DNA of 44,436 nucleotides. It comes from a virus. The stretch lies in the IMG/VR virus record IMGVR_UViG_3300040801_004946; one strand, written 5' to 3'. Position 1 is the first letter of the stretch. Each line of letters starts with the position of its first letter. Shown piece after piece: positions 8,954-44,436 of the stretch. The notes below the pieces were generated by a model, which made no database searches, was not told where the DNA came from, and was given only the letters and a program-made list of their open reading frames with translations. Position numbers and translations under genes: made by a program.

Positions 8954-11900
8954 TCTAAACTTGAATCTTGTACGATTGTTGCACCAATTTCATTAAATGT
9001 ACCTACTCCAGTTATCGTTCCATTGATATAAGTTGTTGTATACGAAACAATATTAATTACAGTAGAATAAAAAGATGTAACTTTAAATGCATCATTAGAT
9101 GGATTAGGAATTATCATGATACAATTATCAAATATAAGTGTCATTGTATATGTTAGTGTTCCAACAGAATTTAGTGCTACTGCTTCATATGTTCCAGCTG
9201 CATTTGTCGATTCAAATCTTGTTCCAACGAATCTTGCTTTAATTTCTGCACCTGCGGTAGTGTCACAAATACCATACATTGCCCATCTATTTGATATTAT
9301 ATGTTTAACATTAAATGTTATAACAGGTCTATTTGATGATGTTGCAATAGAATCTATATAAACTGCAGTTCCACCAAGTCGAGCATCAATTATGTCACAA
9401 TCAAATCGTATGTTTGGATTATTACTGAAATCATCGACTTGTATATCAATAAGTGATAAAGTACCAGCGGTAGATTTTATTATAGTAGGACATTTTACAT
9501 GTATATCATATAAATATTTTGGTCCTGATGCAATATCAATAACTATAATTTCTTCTCCAGTTGCAGTTTGATCTATTTTTTCTGAAACATCAAGAGTTAA
9601 TTTACTAGATGTTGAAGTTGATAACCCTGTAAAATTAATTGATTGAGTTAGTGTAACACTCTTACATTGAATCATTGTATCAGCAGTTGCTGAAAGTGTG
9701 TTTGGAGTAAAGAATGATGAAGTATTAAATACGCCATGTCCATACACATTTGCATCTGTACTATTCCAACTAAAAACATTTGTAGTTGCTGAAACAAACG
9801 TTCCTTCATGGAAATATAAATCAACATAGTCTTCCATTCCTAATGGCAATGATAATGAATATGATCCAGGTAAAATCTCAATTTTTATTCTATTTGCTGC
9901 TGTTGCGACTAATGCTGCTGCTGTTATTGCAGTTTGAATATTATTATATGGTTTCAATGGATCATATAATGCTGGAGTATGCGAAATTGTTCCATCAACT
10001 ACATACGCAGCACCAAGATGTGTAGCAGCATATTCAGCAACCCAACTAGAACCATTATAAGATAAATAACTGCCACTTGTTGATGCAGACGTGTCGACAT
10101 CTGAATGTGTGTCAATAGAACCATCTGCAGAAATCTTTGCAGTGTTAGCTGTAACATCTGTGTTTGCAGAAACTCTAGCTTCTGTGTAATATAAATTAGT
10201 TGAACCTTCAGCTAAATCGTCTGTATCAGCTGGTCCAGATGAACCAGATGTTGATGCTTCAAGTATTGCGTTATCAACATAAGAAATGCTAGCAGTTTCA
10301 ACAAACTCTATATCAGGGTTATTTATAGCATCAGTATTTGATGTTCTAAATGTATCAGCATTACTTATTGCTTCTTCAACTATAATAGTTGGATCTTCCC
10401 AAGATGGATCAGCTTTCCACATACTTATTGCTGTTGTAGTTCCTCCAGATTGATCAATGAATCTTGGTCTTACTAATTTGATAAATGACGGATCGTTGTT
10501 ATCAAGTGCAGTTGCCATTTGTATGTGGAAACCAATGCCTTTATCTTGATCAATATAAAAATTACAATCAATAAATGTGAATTTATGACCATAACAGTCA
10601 TTATCAAGTCTTATTTCAAAACATGCTCCTCTAGCATCTTGTACTATGCCTCTATCTACATTAGCTTGAACATCTGTTATTGTTGTGAAATCGACTAATC
10701 TAGATTGACGACTCATATCAGTGTCAGTCATATCAATTGTAAACAGAGTGTTTCCAGATTTATCTACAACTACCCATTCTCCATTATCTGGATTATGAAC
10801 GGCTGGACTGATTTTAAAATCACAACGATCAAATGTAATAGTATTTCTTCTTTGCCAGAATATATTCCAAGCCATACCACCAATAAACTCTGTTCCGTGG
10901 AATTTTAGATTTGCACCTCTTAAATCTTTACTAGGATTTGATTGATTATTTCCAGTAGTTAAAAGCTTGTCAATATAAAGATCGGCTTCAGCTCTAGGTA
11001 ATGGATTAATTGAAACATCTTCAACAGTAGAAAACTGTTGTACTACAGCAGCTGAAAGGAAAACTTTTGAGTTATATGTAAATGACCAAGTATTAGAAAA
11101 TGAAGCAGATGCACTGATGTACCATTCCCCTTTACCATGGATCCAGTAATTTCCAGCACCATTTGTAAAATCTCCAAATGGTTTGTTATCTGTTCCAGAT
11201 GATCTAATTATTGTTTTTGGTTCACAATAATAATGAATCTCTGGATACGTTTTTGATCCTGAACTCGACGCAACTGAATAGAATCCGTCAAATGCTCTAA
11301 CGTATACCAAATATAAATTATCTGAATCAGCTTGATAAGCTGTATTTGCAGCGTCTGATGCGGCTTCAAATGTTAAATAAGGAGTACCACCAACTGATGC
11401 AGACGTATCATTACCATTTACACCATCAACAATTGCTATATTTGAAGCTAGGAAACTAAAACCATCAACTTCAAATCCATTTAAAGGATTAATTTTAATT
11501 TCTCCTGGTTCCCATTCAGTGCCCGACCAGGTTAAAACTTGACCAGATGTTGATGCTGCAGTTGAGCTGACATCCGAATGCGTTGATATAGATCCATCAG
11601 CTGAAACTTTAGCTGTATTTGCTGCTACATTCGTATTAGCATTTACTCTAGCTTCAGTGTAATAAAGATTAGTTGATCCTTCAGCTAAACCGTCTGTATC
11701 AACTGGTCCAGATCCTCCACCATTAGTTCCATGAAATGCTTCAACTTTTATATCTAGTTCGTCAATAGCACTTGTTACATCTGTGGCTGAAAGAGTGCTT
11801 CCGGAATTATCGTAATAATCTGTAAAAGGTAAACTAGCCCAGTTAGTTGTGCCATCACCTAGTTTATGTTTCTTAAGATCTGTATCATATCCTATTTCGC

Positions 11901-11973
11901 CAACGTCCATTACTGGATTATATGTGCTCCATTGTAGAGTAGTACCTCGTCGCATTTGAATCTTTCTAGCCAT
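8950..11973 (-). CDS. Large tail-fibre / receptor-binding-like protein (1007 aa) with an internal domain duplication
   Basis: The N-terminus MARKIQMRRGTTLQWSTYNPVMDVGEIGYDTDLKKHKLGDGTTNWASLP is the conserved N-terminal module of phage tail fibres, HylP hyaluronidase and Mtd proteins. The body is Ser/Thr/Asn/Gly-rich and looks beta-helix-like. Two ~65-aa segments are near-duplicates (GSGPVDTDGLAEGSTNLYYTEARVNANTNVAANTAKVSADGSISTHSDV and SSGPADTDDLAEGSTNLYYTEARVSANTDVTANTAKISADGSIDTHSDV). Confidence 0.7.
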   Translation of the reverse strand: MARKIQMRRGTTLQWSTYNPVMDVGEIGYDTDLKKHKLGDGTTNWASLPFTDYYDNSGSTLSATDVTSAIDELDIKVEAFHGTNGGGSGPVDTDGLAEGSTNLYYTEARVNANTNVAANTAKVSADGSISTHSDVSSTAASTSGQVLTWSGTEWEPGEIKINPLNGFEVDGFSFLASNIAIVDGVNGNDTSASVGGTPYLTFEAASDAANTAYQADSDNLYLVYVRAFDGFYSVASSSGSKTYPEIHYYCEPKTIIRSSGTDNKPFGDFTNGAGNYWIHGKGEWYISASASFSNTWSFTYNSKVFLSAAVVQQFSTVEDVSINPLPRAEADLYIDKLLTTGNNQSNPSKDLRGANLKFHGTEFIGGMAWNIFWQRRNTITFDRCDFKISPAVHNPDNGEWVVVDKSGNTLFTIDMTDTDMSRQSRLVDFTTITDVQANVDRGIVQDARGACFEIRLDNDCYGHKFTFIDCNFYIDQDKGIGFHIQMATALDNNDPSFIKLVRPRFIDQSGGTTTAISMWKADPSWEDPTIIVEEAISNADTFRTSNTDAINNPDIEFVETASISYVDNAILEASTSGSSGPADTDDLAEGSTNLYYTEARVSANTDVTANTAKISADGSIDTHSDVDTSASTSGSYLSYNGSSWVAEYAATHLGAAYVVDGTISHTPALYDPLKPYNNIQTAITAAALVATAANRIKIEILPGSYSLSLPLGMEDYVDLYFHEGTFVSATTNVFSWNSTDANVYGHGVFNTSSFFTPNTLSATADTMIQCKSVTLTQSINFTGLSTSTSSKLTLDVSEKIDQTATGEEIIVIDIASGPKYLYDIHVKCPTIIKSTAGTLSLIDIQVDDFSNNPNIRFDCDIIDARLGGTAVYIDSIATSSNRPVITFNVKHIISNRWAMYGICDTTAGAEIKARFVGTRFESTNAAGTYEAVALNSVGTLTYTMTLIFDNCIMIIPNPSNDAFKVTSFYSTVINIVSYTTTYINGTITGVGTFNEIGATIVQDSSLE

Positions 11974-12007: not shown

Positions 12008-12853
12008 TTATACGCTTCCGCCATCAATTGGATCTTCATTTTGTGAAGCTGGATCAGGTGAACCACCATCAATTGGATCTTCATTTTGTGAAGCTGGATC
12101 AGGTGAACCACCATCAATATCACTATCAACTTCGTAAACTGAAAACTTTAAACTACCAAATCCATCAAATAATATATCATATTCATTTGTATTTACTGTA
12201 ACGGTGACAAATTCTCCTTTTGTAGTGAATGTTGTTAGATATCCATTTACATTACCAATATCAAATACAAAATCTCCAGCTACATTACCAACTATAAAAC
12301 TTGTACCATCAATCAACACTAATGCTGTTTCTCCTGCTCCACCGGTAAATGTGAAAATAAAAATATTTTTATCGAAATCAACATTTATAATATCACCTCC
12401 TGCTAATTGTATTACTCTAGATGTTGTTGTATTAGTAACAAAAACTAAATCAATTTCATCATCTGTATCAAGTTGCATTCTAGCAACTGAACCTCTCCAA
12501 TATAAAGCGTCTCCTTCTCTAACTCCGCCTTGCGGTCTAATATAATTGCCATCTGGAGAAAAATAACACCAATCTCCAGCATCTGGTCCATTTGGCACTG
12601 TTTTCCCATTTACAAAAACGCGTATACCTGTTCCCGCAAGAGGTTGTTCTTGAACTAGTATATCTGTTGCTAAATCGCCGTCAACTGTTGTCACATTGGC
12701 TGTCATTGCACGATTTTCTTTTGAATCGTATTCTTTTGATGCATTGGCATCTACATATTCTTTCGTCGCACAATCAGAAGCTAATATTGGAGTGATTAAA
12801 TTTAACTTAGGTTGTTTAATAGTTTTGTCTTCAATTTGCTTACCCTTTATCAT
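12008..12853 (-). CDS. Second tail-fibre-like protein (281 aa) with a C-terminal tandem 15-aa repeat
   Basis: The N-terminus contains ...ASDCATKEYVDA..., the D-x-ATK-x-YVD motif common in phage tail-fibre N-termini. It lies directly upstream of the 1007-aa fibre gene on the same strand. The C-terminus is DGGSPDPASQNEDPI repeated 2.2 times. Confidence 0.55.
   Translation of the reverse strand: MIKGKQIEDKTIKQPKLNLITPILASDCATKEYVDANASKEYDSKENRAMTANVTTVDGDLATDILVQEQPLAGTGIRVFVNGKTVPNGPDAGDWCYFSPDGNYIRPQGGVREGDALYWRGSVARMQLDTDDEIDLVFVTNTTTSRVIQLAGGDIINVDFDKNIFIFTFTGGAGETALVLIDGTSFIVGNVAGDFVFDIGNVNGYLTTFTTKGEFVTVTVNTNEYDILFDGFGSLKFSVYEVDSDIDGGSPDPASQNEDPIDGGSPDPASQNEDPIDGGSV
12021..12118. repeat. 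Perfect 45-bp tandem repeat (2.2 copies) encoding the C-terminus of the 281-aa fibre-like protein
   Basis: The units are ccatcaattggatcttcattttgtgaagctggatcaggtgaacca at 12021-12065 and 12066-12110, plus a partial third copy. Confidence 0.9.
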
Positions 12854-12924
12854 TGAAAAAAGTACAGTATTTTTATTATATATTTCATAAAGATACTGTA
12901 GGGAGGAAAAAAGAGAGGAAAAAA

Positions 12925-13222
12925 GAGATTGTTCCCGTAGCCACGATTCTGTTCTATACTTGCATTTATCTAAGCCTCTACCCGGAATCGGCGCCGTTCA
13001 TCCACCATATGATTCCTGTTTGAGTTGCATCCTCAGCAGTACATGCGATAATATATCCTAACAGCAAGCATTGACCGGAGTCAACCTGTGTCTTGGCATA
13101 AGCCTCAGGGTTACTGGGTTGATATATCTACTATTAACCCTTTTTCGTTTATATCTCCTGCTTTAAACGGTGATGTCGTGAGCTTCCTCAGCTTTTCAGC
13201 CGCGCAAGTTCGGAACAATCTC
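12925..13222 (-). ncRNA. rnpB: Candidate bacterial-type RNase P RNA (rnpB-like), ~300 nt
   Basis: This is a GC-richer ORF-free island (~45% GC) with flanks near 25%. The termini pair as a 12-bp P1 helix (GAGAUUGUUCCG at 13222-13211 with CGGGAACAAUCUC at 12937-12925). On the minus strand there are matches to conserved RNase P type A segments. GAGGAAGCUCACGAC matches the GAGGAAAGUCCGGGCUC P4 5' strand. GAUUCCGGGUAGAGGCUUAGA matches AACCCGGGUAGGCUGCUUGA. ACAGAAUCGUGGCUA matches the ACAGAACCCGGCUUA P4 3' strand. The proposed P4 strands can pair (UCACGA/UCGUGG). The P10-P12 region appears reduced. Confidence 0.5.
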
Positions 13223-13282
13223 AATTGTATGTAAATATAGTAATTTAAAATAAACAATTATTTATATAATGATATATAAAAT

Positions 13283-13873
13283 ATGGAGACTAAGTTTAAT
13301 TTAGATTTTGGTTCAATTGAAAAACCTCGTAGTGGAAGTTTAATAGTCTCTAATCCTATGATTGCAGACATAAACTTTTATCGAAGTGTTGTTTTATTGA
13401 CAAAATATTCTCCTGATGAAGGTGCTATTGGATTAATTCTAAATAAACCGACAATGATACATGCAAATGAAACAATGCCGGATTTAGATGAATTTGACAC
13501 TCCATTGTATCATGGCGGTCCAGTTGACCAACATGCCATGTTTATGCTGCATCGAAGAGGTGAAGTAATTGATGACGGAATTCATATTAAAGATGATTTA
13601 TATTGGGGTGGTGATTTAAAGGAAATTCAAAAATATTCATCAATAAATGTTTTAGATTCTTCAGATTTTAAATTTTTATTAGGCTATAGTAGTTGGATGC
13701 CTCATCAACTTGATTCAGAAATTCAAAAACAAGTTTGGAGTGTTTATAATAATTATGATACTTCATTAATTTTTGACAACAATACATCATCAATGTGGAG
13801 AAATGTTTTAAAAGAAATGGGTGGTAAACATAAAATGTATGCAAATTATCCTGTTGATCCCCAATTAAATTAA
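13283..13873 (+). CDS. YqgE/AlgH family protein (UPF0301/DUF179)
   Basis: LIVSNPMIADINFYRSVVLLTKYSPDEGAIGLILNKP aligns with E. coli YqgE [36 protein letters not shown]. The family motifs HGGPV...FMLH and the C-terminal LLGYSSWMPHQLDSEI (vs LYLGYAGWGPGQLEQEI) are present. Confidence 0.85.
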   Translation: METKFNLDFGSIEKPRSGSLIVSNPMIADINFYRSVVLLTKYSPDEGAIGLILNKPTMIHANETMPDLDEFDTPLYHGGPVDQHAMFMLHRRGEVIDDGIHIKDDLYWGGDLKEIQKYSSINVLDSSDFKFLLGYSSWMPHQLDSEIQKQVWSVYNNYDTSLIFDNNTSSMWRNVLKEMGGKHKMYANYPVDPQLN

Positions 13874-22402: not shown

Positions 22403-22750
22403 ATGATAATTGAAATGGATGAAAATACATTAGGTCGAAAAGGTAAATACTTCGGCAAACCAATTTCAACAACAAGAGTTCATGTTGGCTGCGACATTGA
22501 TGATTGTGATGAAACATGGTGGACCATTTGGCGTTATCGTAAACTTAGAAAACAAGACATTTGTCAAACACACAAAAATGAAATGGGAATATGTGGAATG
22601 AAAGGCAAAAATCATTCTGATGAAACCATAGCTAAGTTTAAAGATGGTCGTCGAGCTGGTGAAAACAACGTCAGTAAAAGACCAGAAGTTAGAGAAAAAA
22701 TTTCATGGAGTCTTCGAGGAAAGAAGAGAAACCGTAAAAGCAAAGAATAA
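22403..22750 (+). CDS. Small NUMOD3-repeat DNA-binding protein (homing-endonuclease-associated module) with an N-terminal Cys/His cluster and no nuclease domain
   Basis: GKNHSDETIAKFKDGRRAGENN and SKRPEVREKISWSLRGKKRN resemble tandem NUMOD3 units (G+.HSEETK.K+S). There is a CDIDDCDE...CQTHK...C metal-binding-like N-terminus. Confidence 0.4.
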   Translation: MIIEMDENTLGRKGKYFGKPISTTRVHVGCDIDDCDETWWTIWRYRKLRKQDICQTHKNEMGICGMKGKNHSDETIAKFKDGRRAGENNVSKRPEVREKISWSLRGKKRNRKSKE

Positions 22751-39701: not shown

Positions 39702-41657
39702 TTATTTCACTTCTTCAAATTCAACATCTTCTGTTGATGCTCCATCATTTGTAGGTTGTTCAGCTCCGGGTGATCCTGCTCCACCAAATGGATTAGCTGC
39801 TCCACCAAACATATCTCCCATTGCATCCATAGGATTAGCGCCATCTCCGGCAGCTGATTGATACATTTTAGTTGCAACTTCCTGCATTTTTTCATTTAGT
39901 TCTGCTTGATATTTATCAATATCATCCAAATTTTTAGCAGTCACTGCTTCTTTCAAAGGTTCTATTTTTTCATTTAGAGCCGTTACATCTGCTTCATCAA
40001 TTTTCTCTTCATTTTCTTTTAGAAATTTCTCAGTTTGGAAAACTAAACCATCTGCTTGATTCACTTTGTCAGCTTCTTCTTTAACTTTTTTATCAGCATC
40101 TGCATTAGCTTCGGCTTCTTGTTTCATTCTTTCGATTTCTTCTTCAGATAAATTACTAGAACCTTGAATAGTGATTTTCTGTTCTTTACCAGTTCCTTTA
40201 TCTTTTGCCGCAACATGTAGTATTCCAGATGCATCAATATCAAAAGTAACATCAATTTGTGGTACTCCTCTTGGAGCAGGTGGAATTCCATCCAAATTAA
40301 ATTGACCTAACATTTTATTATCATTGGCCATTGGTCGTTCACCTTGAAATACATTGATAGTTACACTTGGCTGATTATCTGAAGCAGTCGAAAATGTTTC
40401 TGACTTTTTAGTTGGAATAGTAGTATTTGCTTCAATTAATTTTGTAAACACTCCACCCATTGTTTCAATGCCTAAGCTGATAGGGGTTACATCCAACAAC
40501 AATACATCATCTACATCACCAGATAAAACACCGCCTTGAATAGCAGCACCTATTGCGACACATTCATCTGGATTAATTTTTCGATTTGGTTTCTTATTAA
40601 AGAATTTTTCAACTTGATCTTGCACATATGGTATTCTAGTTGAACCACCAACTAAAATAATTTCATCAATTTCTGATTTATTAATCCCAGATTGTTTAAT
40701 TACTTCCTTACATGGTGCAATTGTTTTCTGAACAATTGGATCAATAATACTCTCAAATTTAGCACGTGTTAATGTGGTTACCAAATGTTGAGGCATATTA
40801 TCGATAGATGTAATATATGGAAGATTGATTTCAGTTTGTGTTGCTGATGACAATTCAATTTTAGCTTTTTCAGCTGCTTCTCTAACACGCTGATAAGCCA
40901 TTGTGTCTTTTGTTAAATCAAATCCCTTATCATTTTTGAAATCTTCAACTATCCAATCTATTATTGCATGATCAATATTATCTCCACCAAGTTGATTATC
41001 TCCAGATGTTGCTAGTACTTCAAAAACACCATCTCCTAATTCTAGAAGAGATACATCAAATGTACCACCTCCAAAATCGTAAACAATTATTTTGTGATCA
41101 CTACCGTCTTTATCAAGACCATATGCTAAAGCTGCAGCAGTTGGTTCATTAATAATTCTTTTAACTTCTAAACCAGCAATCTCACCTGCTTCTTTAGTTG
41201 CTTGTCGTTCAGCGTCATTAAAATATGCTGGCACAGTTATAACTGCTTCCTTAACTTCTATTCCAAGATATTCTTCTGCTGTTTTCTTCATTTTTTGAAG
41301 AGTCATTGCTGAAATTTCTTGTGGGGTATACTTTTTACCTTTAATTTCAACTCTAGGTAGATTTCCAGATTTAACTACTTTATAAGGTACATTTAATGTA
41401 TCTTTAGTTAAATCATCATATTTTTTTCCCATGAATCTTTTTATAGAATAAATGGTGTTTTCAGCGTTAATCACTGCCTGTCTTTTTGCAGTATCACCAA
41501 TTTTTCTCTCGTCTGATTTTGCATCAAATGATATAACAGAAGGAGTTGTTCGTTTACCTTCACTGTTTGTTATAACAACAGGTTCTCCTGCCTCAATTAC
41601 AGATACACATGAGTTTGTTGTACCTAAGTCAATTCCAATTATCGATTTTTTTGCCAT
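39702..41657 (-). CDS. dnaK: Molecular chaperone DnaK (Hsp70), bacterial Bacteroidota-like
   Basis: [14 protein letters not shown], the full ATPase and substrate-binding domains, [37 protein letters not shown] and the C-terminus EDVEFEEVK are all present. The Gram-negative-type insertion between IKRFMG and YTPQEISAM is present. Blocks such as [31 protein letters not shown] and [33 protein letters not shown] closely match Bacteroides/Flavobacteria DnaK. Confidence 0.95.
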
Positions 41658-42745: not shown

Positions 42746-42799
42746 TTATGTTTAGCTGTTTAACGTTTGTAAATATATAAAAAAATCGTGTAGTATTTA

Positions 42800-44436
42800 A
42801 TGTCATTAGTACAACAATATCCAAATCCAGGAATATATGTTATCGAAAGAGATAGATCAAGAATAGATAGAACCGAATATTCTGGTGTTGTCCATTTAGT
42901 TGTTGGAAACAGTCGAAAAGGTCCATATAATAATCCACAATTTATTGAAACTAGAGCTCAATTTATTCAAACATTTGGTAATATTGATACTCGATTAGAA
43001 AGACGATCATCTTATTTTCATAGAACAGTTTTAAAAATGCTCGAATCTGGGCCTGTGTATGCAATGAACATTTTAAAAACAGATCCCGAACTTGATATAA
43101 CGAATTTTAAAAGTTTTTCATGCGCAACACATATTTCAAATGAAATTAATAAAGAAGCACCATATAGTTATTTTTATGATCGTACTGGATTTTGGCGAAG
43201 AAGCACCGATCAGTTACTTTGGTTAACTCAACAAAATGGAGTAGAAGAAGATAAATTATTACATTTTGTTAATTTTTTAGATAAACCAATTACAATTTTT
43301 GCTTTTAAATCGAACTTAAAAGGTTTTAATATTCCTCTTGAAGACTGGTATGGTACTGATAATGTACCACTATATTTGCATCCTAAAGATTGGGCTAGTG
43401 ATTATATTGTTAGAGTCGTAGCAATATCAGGTGATTGGACGAATTATCAAAAACTTAGTACTGATCCAAAATATGCAAAATATTTTGATTTTTCTGGACT
43501 TAGAAAAAGTGCTGTTGATGCATTGGTATCAGATTCAAATTTTGACGTTGTAGGTGACTGGGATGTTAGTTTAATTCCATATTTTAAAGATACTCGGGGA
43601 ACTGATATGTATATCGAATCTGTTATAAATTCGTCAACTAATGAAACTGGTATATTTGTTTCGTATAATACTGAATCATTTGAAACAGATTATAGAAACG
43701 GATTTGTTGATATGATTGGACAGAATCTTATTTATGTTAATAATCGGTTTGAAATTGATTTTTTATCATACAGAGAAAATTTATCAGATACAAGAAAAGT
43801 TGAAGAATCTAAGTTAGATATTAATAATAATAGTTGGGGAGATCCTAACTGGGCAGTTGGTCGAACTAATTTATTAGCGGAAGGATATGTTCATAACTCA
43901 CATTTAAGACCGTTAATTATTTCTCAAACCACAAGTACTATTATAACACCATTAGCAACAAATTTTGATTCGTATGCAATTTTAAAAGGAGAAAGAGTTA
44001 ATTTACCTAATGATCCAGAATATTTATTAGAAATTGATAAATATTTATCTATTGGACAACAAATGTGTTTATCAATAGTATTAAATTCTGATGGGATTAA
44101 TTTTAGACTTGGTACTGTTAATAAAAATAGTGGGACATTGCATAAACCTGAAATTGATCCTATAAATGAAATTGTTCTTGGATATTACAGAATTAGTAAA
44201 ACTTCTACCGGCGATATTACTACTGAACTATTTCCCGTTTGTTTAACTGAAGAAAATGATTATAGATATTTTTCAACTAAAAACTTTTTACCGTCTTGGA
44301 GAACCCCATTCGTCGATAATAGTCCAGAAATAACTCCTGAAGTTGAAGATACTTATACTAGCCGAATAGATTTTGTTGATTTGCCTGAAAAATGGCAAGC
44401 ACAATTTAAATTTGAAAATGCTACAAAGTATGTTCC
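42800..44436 (+). CDS. Contractile tail sheath protein (phage myovirus / eCIS-type), partial. About 545 aa lie in the window and the ORF continues past the window end. It is not in the supplied track.
   Basis: I translated from the ATG at 42800 (MSLVQQYPNPGIYVIERDRSRIDRTEYSGVVHLVVGNS...) and it reads without a stop to 44436. The N-terminal YPNPGIYVIERD matches the sheath N-terminal pattern (Y.SPGVYVEE.D.S). Its length is consistent with sheath proteins. Confidence 0.55.
   Translation, partial: MSLVQQYPNPGIYVIERDRSRIDRTEYSGVVHLVVGNSRKGPYNNPQFIETRAQFIQTFGNIDTRLERRSSYFHRTVLKMLESGPVYAMNILKTDPELDITNFKSFSCATHISNEINKEAPYSYFYDRTGFWRRSTDQLLWLTQQNGVEEDKLLHFVNFLDKPITIFAFKSNLKGFNIPLEDWYGTDNVPLYLHPKDWASDYIVRVVAISGDWTNYQKLSTDPKYAKYFDFSGLRKSAVDALVSDSNFDVVGDWDVSLIPYFKDTRGTDMYIESVINSSTNETGIFVSYNTESFETDYRNGFVDMIGQNLIYVNNRFEIDFLSYRENLSDTRKVEESKLDINNNSWGDPNWAVGRTNLLAEGYVHNSHLRPLIISQTTSTIITPLATNFDSYAILKGERVNLPNDPEYLLEIDKYLSIGQQMCLSIVLNSDGINFRLGTVNKNSGTLHKPEIDPINEIVLGYYRISKTSTGDITTELFPVCLTEENDYRYFSTKNFLPSWRTPFVDNSPEITPEVEDTYTSRIDFVDLPEKWQAQFKFENATKYV

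Follow-up and report, generated by a model that had tools for sequence, protein, structure and literature searches.

A 298-nt stretch on the minus strand of the DNA analyzed here, running from position 13222 to 12925, is probably the gene for the RNA subunit of a phage-carried RNase P, belonging to a miniaturized family of such RNAs; we place the probability of this reading at about 80%. The window, as we call the whole stretch of 44,436 nucleotides that was analyzed, is of phage origin. Its RNA is homologous to RNase P RNA and shares with its relatives a conserved structure whose helices covary, and in most of them the gene is linked to tRNA arrays.

An RNase P-like RNA in a G+C-rich island

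The RNA gene lies in an island with a G+C content of 45.3%, whereas the window as a whole has 29.0% and the flanks 30%, and the only open reading frames overlapping it are trivial ones of 48-56 aa, which bears out the GC-rich, ORF-free island described in an earlier note made from the letters alone. The Rfam search suggested there as a check gave a divided answer. At gathering thresholds the whole 44-kb window produced no match at all, RNase P included, whereas a permissive scan of the sub-region matched the RNA to the full span of RNaseP_arch, below threshold (48.7 bits, E = 1.2e-12). The gathering scores of the Rfam RNase P models (100 bits for RNaseP_bact_a, 84 bits for RNaseP_arch) were reached neither by the window RNA nor by any of the 20 relatives tested. 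That the archaeal model outscored the others is probably due to its lack of P13, P14 and P18, and the RNA is not a member of RF00373, as it scores 48.7 bits against a gathering score of 84 and its context is a bacteriophage, not an archaeal genome. Since the RNase P matches are sub-threshold only, the RNase P call rests on the family analysis, in which the window RNA matched a covariance model of its relatives (R1, described below) along model positions 1-178 of 178, with 127.4 bits and E = 7e-32, and in a single copy within the window. Together with the archaeal match, this confirms the RNase P-like RNA that the earlier note had placed at 12925-13222, and sets its strand as minus. The same sequence was found, identical, in two independent samples. 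No convincing sigma-70 promoter or G+C-rich hairpin terminator was seen flanking the RNA on its strand.

Chance resemblance, or membership in a different class of RNA (for example a riboswitch, a group I/II intron fragment or 6S RNA), could be suspected from the lack of an Rfam match at curated thresholds, and the module embedded in the RNA was itself briefly suspected to be a group I intron fragment. RNase P is, however, the sole significant Rfam clan at the island (E = 1e-12), the next matches having E > 4, and no intron, ribozyme or riboswitch family was matched at E <= 10 within positions 12700-13400; a better match to a riboswitch, a group II intron or 6S RNA, which the earlier note had named as a refutation, was not obtained. 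As the R1 match is of E = 7e-32 and the helices of the RNase P fold covary extensively, this explanation has a negligible probability and is effectively refuted.

A family of miniature RNase P RNAs in phages

Shared sequence blocks led to about 45 distinct relatives, almost every one on a viral contig: 38 unique RNAs in a first round and more later. The probe that retrieved the family was the J15/2-P2-J2/4 block, which was present on 21 viral contigs but, among 185,579 species genomes, on no more than 4 contigs. The 5' P4 block was also tried as a probe on its own, and returned more than 120 loci, of which about 100 were chance matches in coding sequence, including one recurrent phage gene; these were dropped through a second requirement, the presence of the 3' strand. 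The relatives comprise IMG/VR contigs and deposited phage genomes, among them 635-kb and 735-kb megaphages and Stenotrophomonas phage DLP_6, and the same type of RNA occurs in megaphages LR756501 and LR745206. In DLP_6 (KU682439), the RNA has about 245 nt and lies at approximately 105,774-106,018. The family RNAs are 173-350 nt long, L006 being a minimal member with a core of 173 nt.

Model R1, of 178 positions, was built from a seed without the window sequence. Four sequences that were misaligned by the 5'-trimmed seed were left out of it and used as test cases, and the scores of the 17 members held out besides the window were all within 91-183 bits; the window RNA belongs to the family by its full-length, significant match to this model of the other members. 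Two relatives matched RNaseP_bact_a over the full model: the DLP_6 RNA in a whole-locus scan (54.7 bits, E = 1.2e-14; the sub-region alone gave nothing against Rfam, which we treat as a filter quirk), and a second one, L240, with 41.9 bits and E = 2.2e-11. As R1 in turn barely recognizes rnpB of E. coli (12.3 bits, E = 0.067), the tie to bona fide RNase P rests on the sub-threshold model matches and on motif identity.

Pairing was first of all a property of the unfitted alignment: with MAFFT, 88.4% of the cells were paired, as compared to 65.5% after shuffling and 33-44% in slid controls, and 41 of the 54 pairs showed changes on both sides. In a model alignment of 40 sequences, the paired fraction was 95.3% versus 28-44% for slid controls. 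We regard it as likely that these RNAs constitute a phage-restricted RNase P RNA family of type A-like build, with an almost intact catalytic domain, a specificity domain consisting of one arm, and P18 lost.

Helices and conserved blocks of the catalytic domain

The elements of the window RNA, all on the minus strand, are as follows.

12925..13222, minus: RNase P-like RNA gene, 298 nt, with its ends taken from the P1 helix
13211..13222, minus: P1 5' strand GAGAUUGUUCCG, read directly; pairs with 12925-12937
13203..13209, minus: P2 5' strand ACUUGCG; pairs with UGCAAGU at 12958-12964
13189..13202, minus: P3 hairpin CGGCU-GAAA-AGCUG; 93-94.5% paired, with compensatory changes
13176..13188, minus: J3/4 GAGGA (including the last G of P3) and P4 5' strand AGC(U)CACGA with a bulged U
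13028..13175, minus: P5 and the specificity-domain remnant that it encloses, a single arm
13051..13147, minus: module X, about 97 nt, at the tip of the remaining specificity-domain arm
12976..13024, minus: P15 CUC/GAG, L15 loop AAACA/GGGUA (GGU motif) and P16 hairpin GGAAUC/GAUUCC
12947..12975, minus: J15/2 block GCUUAGAUAAA (CR-IV-like), P2 3' strand and J2/4 block AUAGAACAGAA (CR-V)
12939..12946, minus: P4 3' strand UCGUGGCU; pseudoknot with 13176-13184
12925..12937, minus: P1 3' strand CGGGAACAAUCUC, with a U-run directly after it

Covariation is strong for P2, P3, P5, P15, P16 and the P4 pseudoknot, and less clean for P1. The latter, GAGAUUGUUCC(G)/(C)GGGAACAAUCUC, is formed by 13222-13211 with 12937-12925 and has 11 contiguous pairs plus one beyond a bulged G, so that the 12-bp terminal helix noted earlier holds; its register varies among subgroups of the family, and 72% of its cells are paired in the unfitted alignment. 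P2, with 7 bp, finds its complement in every family member, being 99.4% paired with six of its seven pairs changed on both sides in the unfitted alignment, and 97.7% paired in the larger one. P5 (CAUC/GAUG; 98.7-98.9% paired) shows compensatory changes, P15 (98.5-99%) occurs with five pair types (CG, GU, UA, AU and GC), and P16 is 94-96% paired.

P4 was left out of the model, and is nevertheless 99% paired across the family, with one position being G-C in 29 sequences, A-U in seven and G-U in one. The window has a C-G pair in P4 where the family has U-G. Folding of the P4 pseudoknot had been put forward as a check on the RNase P assignment, and the two strands do pair, AGC(U)CACGA at 13176-13184 with UCGUGGCU at 12939-12946; the bulged U, the preceding J3/4 GAGGA (CR-I) and the closing ACAGAA (CR-V) are all present. 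The columns of J15/2 and J2/4 are nearly invariant across the family, and L15 GGT and AGATAAATG vary little or not at all. In the window RNA, the P15/L15 block (CUC/GAG, AAACA, GGGUA) is followed by GCUUAGAUAAAUG. P18 is absent, with UUAGAUAAAUG standing directly after P15. Hence, of the conserved blocks recognized in the earlier note, the P4 strands, P15/L15/P16, J15/2 and J2/4 are in place, whereas the P18-like one is not.

A reduced specificity domain with an embedded module

In place of a complete specificity domain (P7-P11 cruciform, P12, P13, P14, CR-II and CR-III), the window RNA has one arm within P5; P7-P9, P13 and P14 are absent from it, as is P18. The arm has a stem AGCAG/CUGCU (92% paired) and is closed by a P12-like stem AUA/UAU (89% paired), both with compensatory changes; its GAG and CGCAUGUA strands are conserved. 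Specificity-domain elements that recognize the tRNA T-loop were not identifiable; the conserved GGAG and CG..G.AC strands, or module X, may correspond to CR-II and CR-III. The idea of a minimized RNase P variant therefore stands, as the specificity domain is cut to one arm, but its proposed basis, the lack of a full P12 arm, is the reverse of what was found: P7-P9, P13 and P14 are missing, and the arm that remains is enlarged by a module of about 97 nt.

This insertion, module X, has a core hairpin GGGUUA...UAACCC and a loop strand AUAUAU (13122-13127) that can pair with a tail strand AUAUAU (13051-13056), directly preceded by GCUGUUAGG (13057-13065). The loop-tail helix has a mean of 5.23 bp, as compared to 3.39 +/- 0.10 in 500 permutations. 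Module X is homologous to free-standing elements of unrelated phages, some of them found in tRNA arrays, and more than 120 viral contigs carry it. Two other family members, L266 and L240, have it at the site that it occupies in the window RNA, and fusions to this arm, with both permutations represented, are seen in three RNase P-like RNAs. A search of viral and metagenome collections for a combined RNase P and module X pattern returned nothing, the pattern being too strict in P4 sequence and module orientation, and the two other fusions were reached via module X instead. Module X is a widespread, circularly permuted and pseudoknotted phage RNA motif that is not in Rfam.

Sequence resemblance and the circular permutation had suggested a group I intron fragment, a hammerhead or a pistol ribozyme, and Rfam gave these candidates no support: the hammerhead, twister, pistol, hatchet, HDV-like and group I models had no match at E <= 10 within 12700-13400, and none at E <= 1 in three free-standing copies, although permuted variants could escape such models. 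The stable RNAs rnaC and rnaD of phage T4 were considered as well, and T4 was not among the BLAST matches. On its arm, module X may restore a function in tRNA recognition or folding. A bolder view, which we consider doubtful, is that phage RNase P is modular, with a minimal catalytic core and interchangeable add-ons, and that module X is a new autonomous tRNA-recognition domain or ribozyme. An equally doubtful part of the same proposal is that module X replaces the lost specificity domain when fused, and that, as a free-standing RNA, it might even serve core-only enzymes in trans.

The window as DNA of a huge phage

The protein genes that define the context of the RNA are the following.

918..3497, plus: vault-protein-like (MVP shoulder) gene, 859 aa, by Pfam
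8950..11973, minus: 1007-aa ORF with the tail-fibre N-terminal domain Mtd_N (Pfam Mtd_N, E = 1e-10)
12008..12853, minus: ORF of 281 aa, immediately downstream of the RNA and on its strand; unmatched in Pfam and PHROG
13283..13873, plus: AlgH/YqgE-family (DUF179) gene, divergent from the RNA (Pfam DUF179, E = 1e-39)
42797..44434, plus: tail sheath gene, a hallmark of phages, running off the window end (PHROG 34521, E = 1.9e-32)

The neighbours had earlier been named as a tail-fibre gene and a YqgE-family gene, and the second of these is correct. For the first, an Mtd_N-type domain of about 50 aa was found on the 1007-aa ORF, which also has PHROG matches to tail spike and tail fibre N-terminal families, but not on the adjoining 281-aa ORF, whose N-terminus contains SDCATKEYVD, a stretch that we take to be tail-fibre-like.

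With tblastn, the best matches of the tail sheath were in 630-735-kb megaphages (38-42% identity), followed by phages of Bacteroidota hosts, and the host of the source phage is probably a member of the Bacteroidota. Among 50,697 phage records, the vault-like protein had full-length matches, of 47% identity, only to LR756501/3 and LR756500. The best phage matches of the window Hsp70 were likewise megaphages, so that for these two proteins the best or only phage matches are megaphages of 460-735 kb. No ribosomal, tRNA or other housekeeping gene was found in the 44-kb window. Because of the tail sheath, the megaphage matches of the vault-like protein and Hsp70, and the absence of housekeeping genes, the choice left open in the earlier note is settled in favor of a giant phage rather than a chromosome, and the window is likely to be DNA of a huge contractile-tailed phage, kin to the 460-735-kb megaphages. 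Other look-ups returned nothing: the DUF179 protein, as bait, retrieved no relatives of the window from viral contigs, an exact look-up of the window Hsp70 gave no record, and megablast of 25 kb of the window against phage records gave no match.

Besides Hsp70, the window carries glycosyltransferases, and its G+C content is low. A eukaryotic giant virus was considered as the source on account of these features, and was rejected in view of the tail sheath, Mtd_N and the megaphage matches.

The RNA might still be the housekeeping rnpB of an ultra-small cell, for instance of the CPR/Patescibacteria, whose RNase P RNAs are known to be divergent, reduced and sub-threshold (PMC8172020). The window is AT-rich with many orphan genes; of the relatives, one is on a 3-kb contig from a Roizmanbacteria bin and others are in MAGs. 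However, the tail sheath, the tail-fibre N-domain, homing-endonuclease-type ORFs and a vault-like protein otherwise seen only in megaphages are all in the window, which has no ribosomal, tRNA or housekeeping gene in 44 kb, and members of the family are rare among 185,579 species genomes. Moreover, the Roizmanbacteria contig is an array of 13 tRNAs with triplicated isoacceptors, which is typical of phages, so this contig is probably misbinned. A cellular origin is, on this evidence, very unlikely.

Linkage to tRNA genes and proposed function

tRNA genes were found at 34 of the 45 family loci. In the 37 loci analyzed for strand, each of the 342 flanking tRNAs (342/342) lay on the strand of the RNA, and in 15 of the 37 the nearest tRNA was 12-24 nt from the modelled core. 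CCA is encoded by 27% of the flanking tRNA genes, and the L15 GGU is conserved. The window departs from this placement, which is typical but not universal for the family: ARAGORN detected no tRNA in it, so that none lies within 12 kb on one side of the RNA or 31 kb on the other, and the RNA is not in a same-strand tRNA array. Two megaphage members, L003 and L156, likewise have no tRNAs. The three tRNA-like genes mentioned in the earlier note are thus absent, neither ARAGORN nor Rfam at gathering thresholds having detected one in the whole window, and as a search for rnpA in the window was also negative, the suggested self-contained tRNA-processing set finds no support.

What we propose on transcription, catalysis, protein partner and substrates is inferred. 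The RNA would be transcribed during infection and would assemble with the host RNase P protein RnpA, which is assumed to be the partner because the window encodes no rnpA. Precursor tRNAs would be bound mainly via the acceptor stem and the contact of the 3'-CCA with L15, and cleavage of their 5' leaders would secure or boost the maturation of transcripts from phage tRNA arrays; host tRNAs would likewise be matured when the host RNase P becomes limiting. In most relatives, where the gene is a cistron in a same-strand tRNA array, the enzyme could be released by the very processing that it would catalyze.

Alternatively, the RNA may be a non-catalytic derivative of RNase P RNA, i.e., a decoy that titrates RnpA or precursor tRNAs, a structured spacer of tRNA arrays, or a decaying relic. 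Little of its specificity domain is left and it has no P18, no tRNA adjoins the window copy, and all members tested are below the Rfam thresholds; in addition, the LR745206 member has GCAAAAU for ACAGAAU in the otherwise invariant J2/4, from which it follows that some members need not be catalytic. On the other hand, J3/4 GAGGA, the bulged U of P4, ACAGAA, AGAUAAAUG and the L15 GGU are nearly invariant in about 45 divergent members, and invariant active-site nucleotides within helices that change in a compensatory manner indicate selection on the catalytic fold and not on a generic scaffold. The identical sequence from two independent samples also speaks against this alternative, and the T-type RNAs demonstrate that a truncation of this kind is compatible with activity (PMC7191817). 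We therefore consider a non-catalytic RNA unlikely, and retain the RNA subunit of a phage RNase P as the preferred reading.

RNase P RNA counts among the few ribozymes that are universal, and has been regarded as a cellular and organellar housekeeping gene; full-text literature searches yielded no description of a virus-encoded RNase P RNA, nor of the family of about 45 members. Phages are known to carry tRNAs, synthetases, modification enzymes and tmRNA, and, if the proposed role is correct, this translation toolkit would gain a tRNA 5'-processing enzyme, which would help to account for the maturation of huge tRNA arrays while the host is being taken over. About 45 natural minimal RNase P RNAs of bacterial type, down to 173 nt, also represent a deletion series with which the need for the specificity domain can be probed. 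Furthermore, there is a gap in annotation, as every member tested is missed at curated Rfam thresholds, and module X is a second unannotated RNA, abundant in phages and absent from Rfam.

Comparison with known systems

In E. coli M1 RNA, J3/4 GAGGA is followed by 3 bp, a bulged U and 5 bp, and the window RNA has this same layout at J3/4 and P4. The CR-IV block, AGAUGAAUG in E. coli, also has its counterpart. In the phage RNAs, P1, P2, P3, the P4 pseudoknot and P5 are arranged and paired as in bacterial type A RNAs (RF00010), with which they also share J5/15 GCAA..CAAACAG, P15, the L15 GGU that pairs with the tRNA 3'-CCA, P16, and the AGAU(A/G)AAUG and ACAGAA blocks, and relatives match the full RNaseP_bact_a model. 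They differ in length (173-350 nt versus about 330-400 nt), in the absence of P7-P9, P13, P14, P6/P17 and P18, with a specificity domain of one arm, and in bact_a scores of 42-55 bits against a gathering score of 100. Unlike type A RNAs, they are phage-encoded, mostly in tRNA arrays, with no cognate rnpA nearby.

Work by Green, Vold, Pan and colleagues reportedly established that precursor tRNA can still be cleaved by a catalytic domain on its own, above all when the protein subunit is present, which gives a mechanistic basis for expecting activity of the phage RNAs. Those engineered RNAs are laboratory deletions with reduced substrate affinity, whereas the phage RNAs are natural and conserved, sometimes with add-on modules.

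A natural loss of nearly the whole specificity domain, with the catalytic domain kept, is shared with the archaeal T-type RNase P RNAs of the Thermoproteaceae, which are still active according to PMC7191817, citing Lai et al. 2010. The T-type RNAs belong to archaea, where they function with archaeal proteins as the only RNase P of the cell; in contrast, the phage RNAs have a bacterial-type P15/L15 and J15/2, retain a stub arm and presumably operate beside the RNase P of the host. We saw no evidence for a direct relatedness of the two.

In CPR bacteria, RNase P RNAs score under the Rfam thresholds, and P13, P14 and P16-18 are often missing from them, P12 sometimes (PMC8172020). The phage RNAs resemble them in being sub-threshold, in lacking P13, P14 and P18, and in needing manual refolding, but the CPR RNAs are single-copy cellular housekeeping genes, about two thirds of which are without the CCA-binding motif that is conserved in the phage family (PMC8172020). 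Lastly, HDV-like theta ribozymes are also phage-encoded catalytic RNAs adjoining viral tRNAs, with a proposed role in tRNA maturation (PMC10879173). These are self-cleaving HDV-like folds of about 50-60 nt that act in cis and on the 3' side (PMC10879173), whereas the phage RNase P homologue would act in trans, on 5' leaders.

Detection of an RNase P-like RNA in the window

The interval 12925-13222 has a G+C content of 45.3%, against 29.0% for the window, and only trivial ORFs overlap it, in agreement with the G+C-rich, ORF-free island that an earlier note had described from the sequence. The 12-bp terminal helix it had pointed out is also present, pairing 13222-13211 with 12937-12925 (GAGAUUGUUCC(G)/(C)GGGAACAAUCUC). 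The same note had suggested a check for an Rfam match to RNase P: at curated thresholds the entire 44-kb window gave no match to any Rfam family, but in a permissive scan of 12700-13400 the minus strand (13220..12927) matched RNaseP_arch over its complete length (model positions 1-288 of 288, 48.7 bits, E=1.2e-12; gathering score of the model, 84), the sole significant match, all others having E>4. Taken together, the silence at Rfam thresholds and the permissive match identify a real, RNase P-like feature on the minus strand, too divergent for routine annotation to reach. Neither a clear promoter nor a clear terminator could be recognised at the RNA.

On the 3' side of the RNA (12860-12924, minus strand), a duplicated pyrimidine tract, CTCTTTTTTCCTCTCTTTTTTCCTCCC, is followed by an AT-rich hairpin and a T-run before the next ORF (12008-12853), whose product ends in two copies of a tandem peptide repeat, DGGSPDPASQNEDPI.

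Structure of the window RNA

The 298-nt RNA could be assigned the following elements.

Elements of the window RNA (window coordinates, all on the minus strand)
13222-13211 / 12937-12925, minus: P1, 12-bp terminal helix
13209-13203 / 12964-12958, minus: P2, ACUUGCG / UGCAAGU
13202-13189, minus: P3, CGGCU-GAAA-AGCUG
13189-13185, minus: J3/4, GAGGA, first G common to P3
13184-13176, minus: P4 5' strand, AGC(U)CACGA
12946-12939, minus: P4 3' strand, UCGUGGCU
13175-13172 / 13031-13028, minus: P5, CAUC / GAUG
13024-13022 / 12978-12976, minus: P15, CUC / GAG
13021-13017 / 12983-12979, minus: L15, AAACA / GGGUA
13016-13011 / 12989-12984, minus: P16, GGAAUC / GAUUCC
12975-12965, minus: J15/2, GCUUAGAUAAA
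12957-12947, minus: J2/4, AUAGAACAGAA

P4 consists of 3 bp, a bulged U and 5 bp, which is likewise the layout of P4 in E. coli M1 RNA. L15 contains a GGU motif, which in bacterial RNase P pairs with the 3'-CCA of the tRNA. The P5 strands enclose one arm, provisionally labelled P12-like, formed by a stem (AGCAG/CUGCU), conserved GAG and CGCAUGUA strands and a closing stem (AUA/UAU), while P18, P6/P17, P7-P9, P13 and P14 are absent. With a single arm left and P7-P9, P13 and P14 missing, the description of the RNA as a minimised variant holds, but what has been lost is most of the specificity domain and not specifically P12, as had been supposed.

A family of related RNAs in phage genomes

A BLAST search with the window RNA against 50,697 phage records gave short matches only, two of them in stretches without annotation, one in the 735-kb megaphage LR756501 and one in Stenotrophomonas phage DLP_6. 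The DLP_6 locus spans 249 nt of a tRNA cluster and matches RNaseP_bact_a over the entire model (54.7 bits, E=1.2e-14); the LR756501 RNA, of approximately 225 nt, has the same layout and no Rfam match even at E<=10. Probing with the 3' block common to these RNAs, AGATAAATG...ACAGRATCGNGGCTA, recovered 21 IMG/VR contigs versus four contigs from 185,579 species genomes. The latter, namely the 546-kb CALFYV010000090.1 (L027, from a 'Bacteriovoracaceae' MAG) and short MAG contigs (the 3-kb L028 from a Roizmanbacteria MAG, L029 and L030 from a Saccharofermentanales MAG), look like misbinned phage DNA, one being 546 kb long and another a 13-tRNA array with triplicated isoacceptors. Matches to a 5'-block-only probe were mostly chance coding DNA and were filtered out.

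Requiring both P4 strands and the closing helix left 38 unique RNAs of 190-349 nt; seven metagenome loci, the megaphage LR745206 and loci L240 and L266 were added later, bringing the family to approximately 45 distinct members among the matches listed with exact-pattern probes. The nearest relative of the window RNA, L151, is 79.6% identical over the core. None of 20 family loci had an RNase P match at Rfam gathering thresholds. R1, a covariance model of the family, barely detected rnpB of E. coli, although the match (12.3 bits, E=0.067) had the correct place and strand; the family is thus a distinct, divergent branch.

At one locus (L013:12882-13777; L017 is identical), a full RNase P-like RNA is followed by an insertion of approximately 700 nt and then by a duplicated 3' fragment of the RNA. 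The insertion encodes a GIY-YIG-type ORF with the motif YYVYILIDGDVPFYVGKG, an arrangement that suggests invasion of the phage RNase P RNA gene by a homing endonuclease or an intron-like element.

Covariation and model tests

Support for the fold came from two kinds of alignment. In A1, a plain MAFFT alignment of 22 members with a hand-written structure, not fitted to R1, 88.4% of cells pair, compared to 65.5% after shuffling (0/500 shuffles reached the observed value) and 33-44% with slid partners, and 41 of 54 pairs show changes on both sides. P2 is a 7-bp helix with perfect complementarity in every member. R1 itself was built from an 18-member seed without the window (178 positions, 35 bp); it detected the window RNA at full length and in single copy (127.4 bits, E=7e-32), as well as all 17 other held-out members (91-183 bits). 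In a 40-sequence alignment fitted to the R1 helices, 95.3% of cells pair versus 28-44% in slid controls, with a covariation score of 0.61 versus at most 0.07. P4 lies outside R1, which makes its test independent of the fit: it is 99% paired, one position is G-C in 29 sequences, A-U in seven and G-U in one, and the window has C-G where other members have U-G. A further P4 compensation, ACUUCGACA/UGUCGGGU, occurs in LR745206 (635 kb; L156:4971-5164), which scores 123 bits with R1.

The window RNA is an RNase P RNA homologue, in which the catalytic-domain fold is conserved and covaries and the active-site blocks are nearly invariant. The main rival reading accepts this descent and proposes a non-catalytic derivative, e.g., a decoy or a scaffold; set against the near-invariance of the active-site blocks, we consider it rather improbable, even with most of the specificity domain gone.

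The LR745206 RNA departs from the otherwise invariant blocks (GGAGAAAC replaces GAGGAAG, and GCAAAAU replaces ACAGAAU), and its function may have diverged.

Linkage to tRNA genes

Relatives of the window RNA are tightly linked to tRNA arrays. tRNA genes were found in the fetched flanks of 34 of 45 family loci, with up to 33 per locus, and L151 lies among eight same-strand tRNAs. In 37 loci analyzed further, 28 had flanking tRNAs, and all 342 of these tRNAs were on the strand of the RNA. In 15 of the 37, the distance between the modelled core and a tRNA gene is 12-24 nt, a spacing at which the tRNA gene abuts P1. CCA is encoded in 27% of the flanking tRNA genes.

One array beside an RNase P-like RNA includes a CTA-anticodon tRNA (L150:3192-3265; tRNA-Pyl according to ARAGORN), a would-be amber suppressor that hints at a stop-codon-recoding phage.

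Module X, an element shared with other phages

The tip of the remaining arm of the window RNA carries an insertion of approximately 97 nt (13147..13051, minus strand), here module X, which is absent from the other family RNAs except L266 and L240; L151 bears an unrelated long hairpin there. Its homologues are free-standing, unannotated elements in unrelated phages, found in tRNA clusters of the T4-like PM2 and the T5-like Stubb and PL1, and also in Bacillus phages Eldridge, Thrax3 and Kirov and in Vibrio phage Va1. The motif spans approximately 90-110 nt, with a core CGAAAAAGGGTTAATAGTAG...CAA.CCAGTAACCCTG plus GCTGTTAGG, and a 22-base-specific pattern places it in at least 120 viral contigs; copies outside the window are at L004:1945-2182, L143:1488-1712, L144:1398-1565, L152-L154 and L157-L276. 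No Rfam family was found for it.

Module X occurs in two circular permutations, with the GCUGUUAGG segment 3' of the core hairpin in 72 and 5' of it in 38 of the matches listed. Within the hairpin loop, the variable segment forms a helix with the nucleotides directly after UUAGG; this loop-tail helix covaries, averaging 5.23 bp among the matches listed, versus 3.39+/-0.10 (maximum 3.67) in 500 permutations, and in 64 of 81 copies, against 12 expected, it is 5 bp or longer. Also among the matches listed, a tRNA lies no more than 300 nt from 27 of the 81 copies, in every case on the strand of the copy. In L266 and L240, the latter with a sub-threshold bact_a match and near-canonical P4 strands, module X sits in the same arm as in the window RNA, in the opposite permutation. 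Its independent fusion to three RNAs at a single site suggests a role as a domain of the enzyme.

The Eldridge record also holds an unannotated, sub-threshold group I intron match (L143:338-555, 36 bits, E=2.6e-6), flanked by a NUMOD4 ORF and a ribonucleotide reductase beta CDS.

Origin of the window

The earlier note had left open whether the window is chromosomal or from a giant phage, and the evidence favours the latter. The ORF running off the right end encodes a tail sheath (PHROG 34521, E=1.9e-32), closest to those of five 630-735-kb "uncultured phage" genomes (38-42% identity) and then to those of Flavobacterium, Lak/Prevotella, Tenacibaculum and Chryseobacterium phages. An Mtd_N tail-fibre N-domain is present in a 1007-aa ORF. 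An 859-aa vault-like protein (918-3497, plus strand), with major-vault-protein shoulder and repeat domains and an SPFH/Band 7 domain, has homologues among the 50,697 phage records only in megaphages (462-735 kb; LR756501/3, LR756500; 47% identity over the full length), and the same megaphages give the best phage matches (62-66% identity) to a full-length, 651-aa Hsp70/DnaK (39702-41657, minus strand). No grpE or dnaJ lies beside the latter, the only candidate being a distant, weakly DnaJ zinc-finger-like ORF (6191-6979). Two megaphages of this lineage bear the same RNA type as a stand-alone gene with no tRNAs nearby. Based on the tail sheath, the megaphage-type proteins and this shared RNA, the window is, by sequence, from a huge contractile-tailed phage akin to the 630-735-kb lineage, and the tail-sheath relatives point to a host that is probably a member of Bacteroidota. 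A cellular, CPR-type rnpB is highly unlikely, as no ribosomal protein, rRNA, tRNA (ARAGORN) or rnpA gene was found in the window, the last of these having been sought at the suggestion of the earlier note.

About half of the window ORFs have no Pfam match. Small NUMOD3/HNH-like ORFs, with homing-endonuclease signatures, occur at 22403-22750 (plus strand) and within 1-1000 (left-end ORF, minus strand), the former inside a glycosyltransferase block and the latter at the window edge. The sugar-modification block, of approximately 20 kb (~14400-36200), is unusually large for a phage and contains many GT2, GT25 and GT-D glycosyltransferases, WbsX/RgpF, UDP-GlcNAc 2-epimerase and dTDP-4-dehydrorhamnose 3,5-epimerase, together with methyltransferases and sulfotransferase-like and RIO/kinase-like ORFs.

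Possible function and comparison with known RNase P RNAs

A full-text literature search of incomplete coverage, which leaves room for earlier work, returned no account of an RNase P RNA encoded by a phage or any other virus. Viral RNase P RNA is likewise unmentioned in a 2024 historical review, a 2020 rnpB-annotation paper and a CPR/megaphage paper, the last of which detected only tRNAs and a tmRNA as RNAs in its megaphages (PMC8172020).

We propose that the window RNA would be transcribed and, as the window holds no rnpA, would bind the RnpA of the host. Recognition of precursor tRNAs would depend chiefly on their acceptor stem and on the contact of CCA with L15, and removal of their 5' leaders would secure maturation of phage tRNA arrays during host takeover. 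Engineered bacterial RNase P RNAs reduced to the catalytic domain cleave precursor tRNA when protein is present. Moreover, T-type archaeal RNase P RNAs, which lack the specificity domain, are active (PMC7191817). By analogy with these precedents, catalytic activity of the window RNA is plausible.
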